Sequence record: PP747161.1
Source: Klebsiella phage vB_KpnS_Chambers_MM6
Direction: 5' to 3' (one strand)
Length of the DNA: 48,028 nt
The position numbers and the translations under genes are program-made. How positions within the stretch are numbered: position 1 is the stretch's first letter; every line of letters begins with the position of its first letter. The notes beneath the pieces were generated by a model. It had not been told where the DNA came from, did no database searches, and saw only the letters and a list, made by a program, of their open reading frames with translations. Of this stretch, positions 1 to 39,099 are shown piece by piece.

Positions 1-105
1 ATGGGGGAAGAAAAAAGCGCTACGCAGTGGCTGCGCGTTTTTATTCTCCCCACCATGCCGTATAGGGGTAAACTGAGGCAGAGCCACTTGAAAGAGGAAA
101 CCAAC

Positions 106-16840: not shown

Positions 16841-17064
16841 ACGCACTGTATCGCGTTCTGCGGCGTTTTCTTGCGTAAGACGTCCGAACGTATGGCCTGA
16901 CGGCGTTAAACGCGACAGCGTGCCGTTCAGGCCCGCAGTTTTCGACTACCGAAGATAAGAATACATCCCATAGCCATATATAATAAAAACCCTCCCAAGG
17001 GAGTTTTATTTATATGGTCTTGGGTATGTCTTATATGTATTTATGGTAATAAATATATATACCC

Positions 17065-17122
17065 ATACCACCTAACACCTGAAATTCAGCATTGTAAATC
17101 AATGGTTTAAAATTTCAGGTGG
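17065..17122. repeat. ACCTGAAATT / AATTTCAGGTG inverted-repeat element, copy 1 (L-K intergenic)
   Basis: ATACCACCTAACACCTGAAATT at 17065-17086 and AATTTCAGGTGG at 17111-17122 form an inverted pair separated by 24 nt. They lie 20 nt upstream of the K-like gene. Confidence 0.6.
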
Positions 17123-17140
17123 TGCCAAGTGGAGGCAAAA

Positions 17141-17890
17141 ATGATTGACGTAAACGACATCCCGGAAAAGCAATTAACCTATATTAAACAACACCTTACA
17201 GAGTGTTCGCCGCAAGAGGGCTGCGGGCTGCTGGTGAATTCAGGCGGAGGCCTCGAATACTGGCCTGTCATCAACTCAGCAGCCGACAAAATGAACAGTT
17301 TTCGCATTGCACCGCAGGAATTCGCTGAGGCTGAGGACGCAGGCAATATCGTTGCCGTCATCCATTCACACCCTGGCGCTGACGGTCTGGCGTATCCGTC
17401 AATCCTCGATCGCCAGCTCATGCAGGAAACTTGCTTACCGTGGTTCATCTACGCCCCGGACAAGGATGAGATGGCGGTGTTCTTTGAGGAGCCGAAGGGG
17501 CTGCTGGGTCGTGACTTCGTGCTGGGTGCGACAGACTGCTACGGCCTGGTGATGGCGTGGCACCGTTCGCGAGGCATCCAGCTCCCTGACTTCCGCAAGC
17601 CGTACCCGTGGTGGGAGAAGGGTGAGGAGCTTTTCACGGATGAGAACTTTTCAGCAGCGGGATTTATCAAGAAGGCCGAGGCAGAGCCGGGCGACATGGT
17701 GGTGTTCCGTATCGCGTCCAGCGTAAGCAATCACTGCGGGATCTACACCGGCGACGGGATGATTATGCACCACCTCATGAACCGCAAATCGACCATTGAT
17801 AGGATGTTTGGCACCTACCTTGAGCCGCGCATTACTGGTATTCTCCGACATGAGTTACTACCGGAGATCACACCATGGGAAACCAGCTAA
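17141..17890 (+). CDS. tail assembly protein (lambda gpK-like; MPN/JAB + NlpC/P60 domains)
   Basis: JAMM-like AVIHSHPGADGLAYPSILD motif. C-terminal Cys/His (DCYGLVMAWH ... HCGIY) NlpC/P60-type residues. RBS GGAGG 5 nt before ATG 17141. Confidence 0.85.
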   Translation: MIDVNDIPEKQLTYIKQHLTECSPQEGCGLLVNSGGGLEYWPVINSAADKMNSFRIAPQEFAEAEDAGNIVAVIHSHPGADGLAYPSILDRQLMQETCLPWFIYAPDKDEMAVFFEEPKGLLGRDFVLGATDCYGLVMAWHRSRGIQLPDFRKPYPWWEKGEELFTDENFSAAGFIKKAEAEPGDMVVFRIASSVSNHCGIYTGDGMIMHHLMNRKSTIDRMFGTYLEPRITGILRHELLPEITPWETS

Positions 17891-18474
17891 GCACCATCCG
17901 ACTGTACGGCGAAATGGGGGCGCGCTTCGGGCGCGTCCATCACCTCGCGGTCGACTCCTGCGCCGAAGCGATCAGCGCCCTTTCCGCCATCCTCCCCGGA
18001 TTCGATCAATATATGCGTGACAGCCAGTCGCGCGGCCTGACCTTCGCTCCGTTCATCGGAAAGCGGAACATCGGCTTCAATGAGATGTCGCAGCCAATCC
18101 CTGACGGCGAAGAGTTCCGCATTGCCCCGATCATCATCGGCAACAAGAAGGGCGGCCTGTTCCAGACCATCCTGGGCGCTGCGATGATTGTTGCTGGCGT
18201 CGTGGCGTCGTTCATCCCCGGCGGGCAGGCTGTCTCCCCTTACCTCGTTGCTGCTGGTATCTCCACGGCTGCTGGCGGGGTCATGCAGATGCTGTCCCCC
18301 CAGGCGACAGGCATGAAGATCCGGGAGGATGACGCCAACGCGCCGTCATACGCCTTCGGCCAGCCGGTTAACACGACAGCACAAGGTAACATCGTTGGCG
18401 TTTTGTATGGCGAGCGTGAGATCGGGGGTGCTATCATCAGCGCCGGAATTATCGCTAACGAGGTACGTTCTTAA
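17875..18474 (+). CDS. tail assembly protein (lambda gpI-like)
   Basis: 199 aa between the K-like and J-like genes. Gly/Ala-rich hydrophobic C-terminal half as in gpI. Overlaps K by 16 nt. Confidence 0.7.
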   Translation: MGNQLSTIRLYGEMGARFGRVHHLAVDSCAEAISALSAILPGFDQYMRDSQSRGLTFAPFIGKRNIGFNEMSQPIPDGEEFRIAPIIIGNKKGGLFQTILGAAMIVAGVVASFIPGGQAVSPYLVAAGISTAAGGVMQMLSPQATGMKIREDDANAPSYAFGQPVNTTAQGNIVGVLYGEREIGGAIISAGIIANEVRS

Positions 18475-29764: not shown

Positions 29765-29968
29765 TTATTCACCCTCTACTTTAACGAGTTCATGCCATTC
29801 GATTCCCAGGGGCTTCGCAAGGCGGATCATGGTTTCAATGGTCGGGAACTCACGGCCATTGTCATAACGGCATACGCGGCACTGCGCAATGCCTGCTGCT
29901 TTCGCCAGACCACGCTGGGAAAATCCAGCGCGCTCACGGTGTTCTTTCAAAATCAGTGTGATGTTCAT
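29765..29968 (-). CDS. HTH XRE-family transcriptional regulator (Cro/CI-like)
   Basis: 67 aa. GFSQRGLAKAAGIAQCRVCRYDNG helix-turn-helix signature. Last gene of the leftward early block. Confidence 0.75.
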   Translation of the reverse strand: MNITLILKEHRERAGFSQRGLAKAAGIAQCRVCRYDNGREFPTIETMIRLAKPLGIEWHELVKVEGE

Positions 29969-32625: not shown

Positions 32626-32651
32626 GATGACCTCCTGTGTGGTGTTTGGGC

Positions 32652-32681
32652 ATATTACTTCCGCATAATAGGCCATGTCAA
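32652..32681 (-). promoter_or_regulatory. near-consensus leftward promoter (TTGACA-18-TAATAT)
   Basis: On the minus strand, -35 at 32681..32676 and -10 at 32657..32652. Between the VRR-NUC gene and the 32625 gene. Confidence 0.55.
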
Positions 32682-35220: not shown

Positions 35221-35787
35221 ATGATGAATATTGGCAAACTACCCGAACCAGAAATTCACGAGGGCGCGATACAGCGGGCTTTTGTGCGTTCTATGGGCAA
35301 CTCATTCCAGATCATGATCCCGAACTACTACACCCCTGACAACTTGGGCTATGAGGCGGATATGTTCTGTATCCGCAAGAGCCGCTACACGGTGGAAGTG
35401 GAGGTGAAGATCTCCATTGCCGACATGCGCGCTGACTTCCGCAAGGCCCACACCGTTTACCCAAAGACAGCGGAGGAAGCAGAAAAATACTGGCGATCAG
35501 ACGAAAACGAGCGCGTCCCGTACCCGGTGAAGATGAAGCATGACTGCCTGAAAGCTGGTGAGCTGATAGCCAACCGCTTCTACTTCCTGGTGCCGTGGAC
35601 TATCGCTGACAAGGCACGGGAGATCCTGCCGGACTATGCCGGGCTTTACGTGTACAACCAGCGCGGACTGGTACACGAGGAAAAGATGGGGCCGATGCTG
35701 CACAAGCGTAAGCTCGATCCGAAATATGACCAGGGGATCATGGCCAACCTCAACACCCGCTACCTGAATCTGTGGAGGAGGTCATGA
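35221..35787 (+). CDS. hypothetical protein with PD-(D/E)XK-like motif
   Basis: 189 aa from ATG 35221, RBS AAGGA. GYEADMFCIRKSRYTVEVEVKIS resembles a D-x(n)-E-x-K nuclease core. Translationally coupled to the downstream primase zinc-ribbon gene. Confidence 0.5.
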   Translation: MMNIGKLPEPEIHEGAIQRAFVRSMGNSFQIMIPNYYTPDNLGYEADMFCIRKSRYTVEVEVKISIADMRADFRKAHTVYPKTAEEAEKYWRSDENERVPYPVKMKHDCLKAGELIANRFYFLVPWTIADKAREILPDYAGLYVYNQRGLVHEEKMGPMLHKRKLDPKYDQGIMANLNTRYLNLWRRS

Positions 35788-36285: not shown

Positions 36286-36314
36286 TTGACAGGTATATGG
36301 TGCCCAAGTAATAT
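36286..36314 (+). promoter_or_regulatory. near-consensus sigma70 promoter (TTGACA-17-TAATAT)
   Basis: -35 at 36286-36291, -10 at 36309-36314. Sits upstream of the 36345 gene within the rightward early block. Confidence 0.6.
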
Positions 36315-36344
36315 GCCCGAACACCCAACAGAAGGAGCAGCAAA

Positions 36345-38904: not shown

Positions 38905-39099
38905 ATGGGTAAGACGTACCCGAGGCACAATGCCCGCACTGTATCACGGGCTGACAGGCTGCGCAGGATGAACCAAGATAAGAACACGCGAGTCATCACC
39001 AAATACATCGCCGGGACACTAGCCCGGCTACCAGAAGGAGAAGATCATGACGTTAGCACAGGCAATCTTGAAGGCATCAACCGAAGGGCGAGATCTTAA
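38905..39099 (+). CDS. hypothetical small basic protein
   Basis: 64 aa, RBS GAGGAG 8 nt upstream. Overlaps the next ORF by 53 nt, so its true 3' extent is uncertain. Confidence 0.3.
   Translation: MGKTYPRHNARTVSRADRLRRMNQDKNTRVITKYIAGTLARLPEGEDHDVSTGNLEGINRRARS

Follow-up and report, generated by a model that had tools for sequence, protein, structure and literature searches.

The junction between the L-like and K tail genes of Klebsiella phage vB_KpnS_Chambers_MM6 (PP747161.1; the whole stretch of 48,028 nucleotides was analyzed and is called the window) raises the question of why a short sequence among tail genes should recur, inverted, beside the gene for the replicative helicase. The sequence is the 22-mer ATACCACCTAACACCTGAAATT at 17065-17086 (+), and, as a preliminary description of this DNA had reported, it is the exact reverse complement of 47953-47974. 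The L-K junction is referred to here as locus 1 and the region between the helicase gene and terS as locus 2. The reading favored below, held tentatively and at somewhat less than an even chance, is that these loci are two origin-type modules bound by the helicase, of the SPP1 oriL/oriR or P4 ori/crr kind.

The phage belongs to the vB_Kp3/Holland_MM2/phiKp_14 group of Klebsiella siphophages (99% identity to deposited genomes), which are unclassified and lytic. Starting with terS, the head, tail, and fibre genes all lie on the plus strand, and 3' of the fibre genes are recombination/replication genes, methylases, lysis genes, and a leftward early operon. Locus 2 had been regarded as a terminal region of the genome. 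There is no physical end at this position; the record simply begins at an ATG that falls within a long hairpin, and 47605-48028 together with 1-105 make up a single intergenic region flanked by the divergent helicase gene (minus strand) and terS. The annotated terS start is the ATG at base 1; translation probably starts from ATG 106, which follows a GAGGAA ribosome-binding site and corresponds to the annotated start in EKq1.

Two inverted copies of a multi-part module

A scan of the whole genome revealed no further copy of the 22-mer with up to three mismatches, and 100 dinucleotide-preserving shuffles yielded no match; a repeat finder extends the pair (I2) to 37 nt at 84%. Exact copies of the core 10-mer ACCTGAAATT number four and are confined to 17077(+), 17111(-), 47887(+), and 47953(-). 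When one mismatch is allowed, 10 matches are found (1.8 expected), and no shuffle gave as many. The second, oppositely oriented core reported for each locus was confirmed, as AATTTCAGGTGG from 17111 and in the palindrome CCTGAAATTTTCAGG at 47888-47902, a 7+1+7 arrangement of two abutting inverted cores. The exact core is confined to these two places, and weaker copies at 47840-47850, 47673-47683, and 84-94 had been overlooked. A match at 35247 (ACCAGAAATT) was disregarded because it lies within coding sequence. In the form NCCTGAA(A/C)NN, seven to eight copies are distributed across the two loci as clustered short repeats, which are candidate initiator sites. Each arm is bipartite, with a variable 5-mer occurring twice and then GAAATT (e.g. 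CCACCTaaCACCTGAAATT). The palindromic pairs are unequally spaced (CTGAAATTCAG at locus 1 vs CCTGAAATTTTCAGG at locus 2), and the remaining copies are single or direct.

The two loci align as one module, in opposite orientation, in every lineage examined. From the outside inward, the module consists of a hairpin, an AT-rich tract of ~45-50 bp ending in TATATATA(A), the 22-mer, a box of the type bound by integration host factor (IHF), and a further inverted core. Read leftward, locus 2 contains the hairpin at the record junction, the AT-rich tract (48018-47975), the 22-mer, the box TATCAGACACTTG, the palindrome, the box TATCAATAACTTG, a bipartite site, and a weak core (Table 1). The junction hairpin resembles a bidirectional terminator, and its stem is kept by compensatory changes in EKq1, Diencephalon, K70PH128C1, and L093; the locus-1 hairpin (16978-17016) is 97-100% conserved in the A and B lineages defined below and 88% in EKq1. 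TATATATA occurs genome-wide only at 17054 and 47981, and the tracts that contain it (17017-17064 and 47975-48018) are among the few 40-nt segments with at least 75% AT, making them candidate unwinding elements.

The boxes were located with the IHF consensus WATCAANNNNTTR, which has strict matches in the 48 kb only at 17097 and 47864. A looser form, WATCAR, adds 47930 and one unrelated site, so that three of the four genome-wide matches lie within ~500 bp; in Op1_ER4, all three strict matches are inside the two loci. These are predicted IHF-type sites, at which the host protein would bind and bend the DNA. Ten bases separate the 22-mer from the box at locus 1, and the box at 47930-47942 is 22 bp centre-to-centre from the 22-mer core, a spacing equal to that of locus 1.

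Inverted repeats of 22-37 nt could also invert the 30.8-kb segment between them, or be the footprints of mobile elements, and a recombination-related element had been put forward. The phage encodes Erf and ExoVIII, and another inverted pair (32631-32670 and 36296-36335) bounds a block that is inverted in Diencephalon-type relatives. However, all 38 relatives are collinear, with both loci on the same strand and at the same distance in 38/38. No recombinase, invertase, or transposase was identified in Pfam scans of 30 of the ~56 predicted proteins (products of regulatory, replication, and small early genes, but no structural proteins), and the conserved multi-part architecture, together with the concerted evolution described below, points to a binding function. 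The probability assigned to recombination is very small. The other pair, termed I1, is a 40-nt repeat with 80% complementarity, and its block encodes a VRR-NUC nuclease, a SNF2/RadD-like helicase, a 189/254-aa open reading frame, and a small zinc-ribbon primase. Relative to the flanking exonuclease and methylase genes, Diencephalon and ATCEA85 carry the block inverted, and K70PH128C1 carries it as in the window.

Core sequences change together between lineages

The module was compared across 12 relatives (whole genomes or both loci) and one metagenomic contig (L093). It is retained at both places, inverted, in all Klebsiella-group members, with a lineage-specific core of six types. By lineage the core reads CACCTGAAATT, CCCCTGAAATT, TCCGCGAAATT, CTTCCGAAAT, and TACGCGAAATT, and both loci shift together within flanks that are 85-100% identical. 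Class A (CACCTGAAATT) comprises the window, JYSS1, KPLY1, HBM00, and K49PH164C2, with a variant in KPJD2; class B (CCCCTGAAATT) comprises Op1_ER4 and KPAJ1; class C is EKq1 (TCCGCGAAATT and GTCCGTGAATTT); class D is Diencephalon and ATCEA85 (CTTCCGAAAT and CCGTCTGA); class E is K70PH128C1 (TTTACGCGAAATT); and class F is contig L093 (CTACACGCGAAAT). The weaker sites follow the same pattern. Position 84-94 is occupied by the lineage's own core in K70PH128C1 (TTTACGCGAAATGAGG), L093 (CTACACGCGAAAGG), and EKq1 (GTCCCTGAACAA), as is the equivalent of 47673-47683 in EKq1 and Op1_ER4, and K70PH128C1 has a lineage-specific palindrome, AGCGAAAATTTCGCGT, where the 47888-47902 palindrome sits.

The two 22-mers of one genome are identical at 17-22 of 22 positions, and those of different classes at 6-15 of 22. 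Between the window and EKq1, identity falls to 55% in the 22-mer and 43% in the 3' arm, against 88% for the hairpin and AT-rich tract, 94% for the region after L, and 85% for the start of K. The sites therefore evolve faster than their surroundings, and they do so jointly at loci 17 kb and 31 kb apart; such concerted change is the signature of a trans-acting reader, here a putative one, with lineage-specific specificity. The preliminary description had envisaged a dimeric DNA-binding protein or a host factor acting at paired half-sites. Sequence-specific protein sites and a host factor fit the concerted cores and the IHF box between the arms, but paired half-sites of late operons, as put there, are not supported.

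Inverted cores in transcribed DNA could alternatively act as RNA: stem-loops in the 5' leader of K and in a locus-2 transcript might influence mRNA stability, processing, or translation. An 11-bp stem forms between the locus-1 arms (dG -22.5, z -2.3) and is slightly better than shuffled sequence; the 3' arm lies directly against the ribosome-binding site of K, and one A-to-G substitution in KPJD2 would be accommodated as a G-U pair. Locus 2, by contrast, folds no better than shuffles on either strand, and its 22-mer is unpaired with its partner; in Diencephalon the complement is to a different part of the 22-mer. A stem also requires neither the same sequence at two loci nor concerted change, and an Rfam search over the window returned no match. 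In K70PH128C1, the cores flanking the IHF box are direct repeats, so the element acts as DNA, which excludes an RNA hairpin. Relatives break the stem without compensatory conservation of base-pairing, and the RNA explanation is largely refuted and scarcely credible.

The helicase winged helix as a candidate reader

The helicase gene adjoining locus 2 encodes an AAA_25 RepA-like core followed by a predicted C-terminal winged helix. Relatives carry the annotation "primase/polymerase," and sequence searches of PDB and NCBIfam gave only a weak match to RSF1010 RepA. The winged-helix domain spans residues ~455-553 (nt 45946-46242), and an AlphaFold2 model of residues 455-553 has a pLDDT of 83, with a core above 90. 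Its best PDB matches are the DNA-bound winged helices of MarR, RosR, and FoxO (probability 1.0, TM ~0.6). The last ~95 residues are also the most variable part of the protein between lineages.

Winged-helix allele A was found in 6/6 genomes with A sites and allele B, which differs by eight substitutions including one in the recognition helix, in 2/2 genomes with B sites. Allele therefore fits site type in 8/8 A/B genomes, four of them mosaic, and the winged helix also differs in classes C, D, E, and F. The mosaics KPLY1, KPJD2, HBM00, and K49PH164C2 have a B-like locus-1 spacer yet A-type sites, and the helicase of KPJD2 is itself mosaic, being A-type only at the winged helix and a few other positions. 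A per-gene identity table, compiled in search of a co-varying protein, is confounded by phylogeny and is informative only via such mosaic genomes. The association suggests the winged helix as the reader. The assignment is suggestive rather than conclusive, because the sample is small (eight genomes, perhaps two independent events) and physical linkage ties the helicase gene to the locus-2 sites.

Two other proteins had been nominated as regulators of the sites. The helix-turn-helix (HTH) protein at 39047 has no detectable homologue in relatives that retain the module. As for the 67-amino acid (67-aa) XRE-type HTH protein at 29765, in mosaic genomes site type tracks the winged-helix allele of the helicase and not the HTH allele: KPJD2 has the B allele of the HTH protein with A-type sites, and the HBM00 copy, also with A-type sites, is equally diverged from that of the window (94% identity, a figure for overall identity only). 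Because these copies are uncoupled from site type, the 67-aa protein cannot explain the A/B shift.

A possible pair of origin-type modules

From the computed anatomy, the uniqueness of the elements, their concerted change, the predicted winged helix, and its allele association, we infer binding by the helicase, a role for IHF, unwinding, and a role in replication. The C-terminal winged helix of the hexameric helicase would recognize the NCCTGAAAWT cores, and host IHF would bend the DNA and bring the sites on either side of its box together. The adjoining AT-rich tract would then open, and helicase would be loaded there. The primary origin would be locus 2, which adjoins the helicase gene and also lies at the helicase-operon promoter. 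Locus 1, between tail genes L and K, could be a second origin or a fork-arrest site that aids the switch to concatemers, as proposed for SPP1 oriR; the phage encodes ExoVIII, Erf, SSB, and a VRR-NUC nuclease. A more elaborate version, which seems unlikely, is that the helicase targets itself to its own sites, that locus 1 is a programmed fork trap or second origin setting off recombination-driven concatemer synthesis, and that rapid, concerted change of site and reader creates a replicon-specific "incompatibility" by which co-infecting relatives cannot exploit one another's helicase.

Several observations weigh against origin-type modules. There is no DnaA box with one mismatch or fewer at locus 1 or 2 of the window, and the GC skew profile gives no origin signal. 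In favor of origins, though in relatives only, a perfect DnaA box (TTATCCACA), the sole one per genome, is present in locus 2 of JYSS1-type relatives and Diencephalon (L007:48209, L006:48166, L004:44092, L095:2187, and L097:2187), which have in common a middle part of locus 2 absent from the window. The cores are irregular in spacing and mixed in orientation, unlike the evenly phased iterons of classic origins, and the sample and linkage limits on the allele association apply here as well. The remaining adverse points are those that support transcriptional control: the AT-rich tracts contain -10-like hexamers (TATAAT, TATATA) 5-7 nt upstream of the 22-mer at both loci, so that transcription could start at its first base; a hairpin followed by a promoter is a common layout at the start of transcription units; cores abut the ribosome-binding sites of K and terS, a hint of expression control; and the 67-aa HTH protein remains a candidate, with a recognition helix that is the same in classes A and B, whose cores are near-identical, and different in C, D, and E.

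These points make operators of a transcription regulator the principal alternative, although it is considered improbable. The 67-aa protein, a clear Cro/CI/RstR-type DNA binder, would act with IHF on the cores to repress or activate promoters in the AT-rich tracts or between the arms, and so time the K-I-J-fibre, helicase, and terS operons. Palindromic cores such as CCTGAAATTTTCAGG suit a dimeric HTH protein, and a promoter-like TTCAGC-17-TAAAAT lies between the locus-1 arms. However, no candidate promoter has a usable -35, the last T of the inter-arm -10 is lost in four of seven lineages, and no convincing promoter shows conservation. Promoter-like matches overlapping cores are weak (8-9/12); the strong promoter at 47658-47630 has one weak core by its -35, and the three consensus early promoters are without such cores. 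The geometry of the core pairs also varies, from 11-bp and 15-bp palindromes to the direct repeats of K70PH128C1, with no fixed dimer spacing, and KPJD2 combines the B allele of the HTH protein with A-type sites, as does HBM00 an equally diverged copy. A sigma-54 promoter was considered by eye and rejected: the locus-1 arm reads TGGCAC on its minus strand, but Op1_ER4 does not retain this hexamer, and a -12 element is missing.

The positions of the modules likewise do not suit a late-operon switch. The preliminary description had placed the half-sites just upstream of two rightward late operons, as for a late activator or repressor, but the two modules face opposite ways with respect to those late genes. 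The leftward helicase operon, served by a consensus sigma-70 promoter of its own, shares locus 2, and locus 1 is a lineage-specific insertion in a tail-gene junction. The L-K junction was surveyed in 54 IMG/VR siphophage loci with a K homologue, which were three close relatives, the only ones found in a search with the K protein, and 51 more distant loci. In 50 of the 51, L and K are contiguous (gap of -10 to +30 nt) without a regulatory insert, and the exception, L020, has a small inserted open reading frame; within this sample the ~300-nt insert is specific to this phage group (the three close relatives). The origin and operator readings are not mutually exclusive; iteron plasmids use one set of protein-site pairs for both initiation and autoregulation.

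Packaging and the record junction

A packaging element near the genome end had also been suggested. In this explanation, terS would bind the cores around IHF bends, as at lambda cosB (R3-I1-R2) or SPP1 pacL/pacR, with locus 2 as pac and locus 1 as a decoy or secondary copy. Locus 2 is directly upstream of terS, and sites flanking an IHF box are the layout of lambda cosB. Conversely, terS belongs to the family of P22 gp3, the small terminase, and the P22 pac site lies inside the gp3 gene. The HTH of terS is also uncoupled from site type: it reads ITTTTFHDWR in class A and ITTTTLHRWR in class D, whose cores differ, and IHQSTLHEWR in class B, which shares the core of A. Locus 1 is 17 kb away among tail genes, inverted and with no terS nearby. 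The EKq1 record, opened following PhageTerm analysis (PMC10793312), has its first base within a core located between the hairpin and the terS ribosome-binding site, but three unannotated relatives from one laboratory start inside terS and not at locus 2. Given a terS HTH that does not follow site type and the distance of locus 1 from terS, the case for packaging is weak, and its probability is put very low.

The opening of the EKq1 record (L002:1) lies inside the lineage-type core (GTC|CCTGAACAA), corresponding to ~75-95 in the window. The paper describing EKq1 claimed an 8,798-bp direct terminal repeat (PMC10793312). Such a repeat appears implausible, and a headful packaging series beginning at this point might instead account for it.

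Features of the two loci and their surroundings

Table 1. Sequence features of loci 1 and 2 and genes for candidate binding proteins, in window coordinates
Feature	Position	Strand	Score or remark
3' part of long hairpin across the record junction (~48020-48028 + 1-55), GGGGAAGAAAAAAGCGC...GCGCGTTTTTATTCTCCCC	1..55	.	dG -29.9 kcal/mol
Degenerate core CCACTTGAAAG, directly before terS ribosome-binding site	84..94	+	
GC hairpin with A-/T-run flanks, bidirectional-terminator-like, after L-like tail gene region	16978..17016	.	dG -8.0 kcal/mol
AT-rich tract, TATATATA at 17054-17061; candidate DNA-unwinding element (or -10-type promoter)	17017..17064	.	
22-mer: distal core CCACCT (17068-17073) and proximal core CACCTGAAATT (17076-17086)	17065..17086	+	
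IHF-consensus box AATCAATGGTTTA between arms	17097..17109	+	position kept in all lineages
Inverted arm AATTTCAGGTGGTGCCAAGTGG: AATTTCAGGTG, GTGCC, AAGTGG (reverse complement CCACTTGGCACCACCTGAAATT)	17111..17132	-	
67-aa XRE-type HTH protein, alternative candidate binder	29765..29968	-	Pfam HTH_31/HTH_3
Replicative helicase, AAA_25 RepA-like core and C-terminal winged helix; candidate site binder	45943..47604	-	Pfam AAA_25 E 1.5e-16
Sigma-70 promoter TTGACA-17-AATAAT, leftward helicase operon	47630..47658	-	11/12 consensus matches
Weak core CGCCTGAAAAA, just upstream of helicase-promoter -35	47673..47683	+	
Bipartite site CCACCTCAACGCCACCTGAACAG	47828..47850	+	
IHF-consensus box TATCAATAACTTG	47864..47876	-	second strict match
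Palindrome CCTGAAATTTTCAGG, two abutting inverted cores	47888..47902	.	
IHF-like box TATCAGACACTTG	47930..47942	-	WATCAR form
22-mer, second copy	47953..47974	-	
AT-rich tract, TATATATA at 47981-47988	47975..48018	.	identical in all A/B-lineage relatives examined

At locus 1, the inverted arm (17111-17132) abuts the ribosome-binding site of K, whose ATG is at 17141. Upstream of the module, a noncoding stretch past the L stop (16841-16960) is conserved even in Diencephalon and folds strongly (dG -45.8 over 128 nt, stem GGCCTGACGGC...GCCGTTCAGGCC; no Rfam match). A metagenomic relative, L013 (995-1265), has four tandem copies of a 69-nt unit of this stretch.

The left half of locus 2 contains all three copies of CTGTAAAY in the window (47695, 47719, and 47794, all +), arranged as direct repeats. 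TGTAAAC-type repeats are held at the same positions in EKq1 and Op1_ER4 with no lineage-specific change, and the motif may be a second, conserved binding site. GCCTGAAAAACAGGC at 47674-47688 was considered as a boxB element of lambda Q-type antitermination (nut) and rejected; it is absent in EKq1, and the scanned proteins include none that is Q-like. Three early operons (47605-47658 (-), 32631-32670 (-), and 36296-36335 (+)) appear to share a promoter-leader cassette composed of a -10 (AATAAT or TAATAT), GYCCGAACMCC, and a CAG(G/A)AGG ribosome-binding site; I1 is formed by two copies of this cassette.

Elsewhere in the window, a 532-aa open reading frame between terS and terL (681-2279), coiled-coil in appearance and without a family match, is by far the most variable gene of the structural region, with 34-47% identity where its neighbors exceed 90%. 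A gene for a 3292-aa J-like tail protein contains several families of diverged direct repeats at 22253-27282 (within 18474-28352), with units of 85-113 nt in 5-7 copies at 60-77% identity.

More distant phages differ in organization. Setonix-type Pectobacterium phages are without locus 1 and have a different repeat array upstream of terS (TTCCCCACAAAT, with a palindrome). In Setonix itself, a Dickeya/Pectobacterium phage (L010:13000-13560), a homologue of the 67-aa HTH protein is present and the L-K insert is absent, and the array upstream of terS consists of TTCCCCAC(A)AAT several times, including the palindrome CCCCACAAATCGATTTGTGGGG. The organization of MED16 is too different for comparison.

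Discussion

Siphophages of the vB_Kp3, HSE3, and EKq1 group are collected as therapy candidates, and the papers found on them, isolation reports and genome announcements, do not mention promoters, origins, or repeats. Should the modules be origins, they would identify where replication starts in these phages and which protein initiates it, account for the noncoding insert between L and K, and give the SPP1 two-origin model a Gram-negative counterpart. The natural series of site and reader variants, with at least five classes, would then be a system for studying the co-evolution of DNA-binding specificity, and could be used in designing cocktail phages with or without cross-complementation. If the modules are operators, the same data define the regulon of the regulator and its specificity classes.

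Compared with known systems, the sites resemble lambdoid Cro/CI operators in being short, lineage-specific, co-varying across the major site classes with a small HTH protein, and in part palindromic. They are unlike them in their unfixed spacing and orientation, their placement off the consensus early promoters, and the uncoupling of HTH protein and site in two mosaics. In P1 parS and lambda cosB, bipartite boxes lie on either side of an IHF site and one complex contacts both arms, and the P1/P7 parS boxes combine a constant ATTTCA-type box with a variable specificity box, much as a constant GAAATT is combined here with a variable 5-mer. This resemblance is architectural only. A ParB/parS system was rejected, as no ParB-like protein is among those scanned and partition is unexpected in a lytic phage.

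The closest protein parallel to the helicase proposed here as reader is P4 alpha, a helicase that binds origins through a C-terminal winged-helix domain. Its repeats (TGTTCACC) are found in direct and inverted orientation at both P4 ori and crr, which are both needed or used in cis; alpha also contains a primase. The phage shares with P4 a helicase with a C-terminal winged helix and short repeats at two loci. It differs in having a separate gene for a small zinc-ribbon primase and in the lack of detectable sequence similarity, and no IHF box is known in P4 ori or crr.

The layout of the two loci is closest to that of SPP1. SPP1 has two origins composed of repeats and an AT-rich unwinding element, and its oriR interrupts the late-gene order between transcription signals; it has been proposed that forks stall there on the origin-binding protein and that an exonuclease, an annealase, SSB, and a resolvase then carry out the switch to sigma replication (PMC6316719, PMC5737612, PMC3485210). 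As with SPP1 oriL/oriR and gp38, there are two distant copies with repeated sites and an AT-rich element, one at the replication genes and one splitting the late genes in a noncoding segment flanked by transcription signals, and an exonuclease, an annealase, SSB, and a junction nuclease are encoded. The copies are separated by a similar part of the circle, 13 of 44 kb in SPP1 and 17 of 48 kb in the present phage. The two systems share no sequence or protein homology, however. In SPP1 the origin binder is a protein separate from the loader and the DnaB-type helicase, and oriL lies within a gene. Here the candidate binder is a winged helix that forms part of a RepA-like helicase, the module includes an IHF-type box as a constituent, direct and inverted sites occur side by side, and the function would be analogous by inference. 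The kind of element is already known, and what is added is a natural series of matched site and reader variants.

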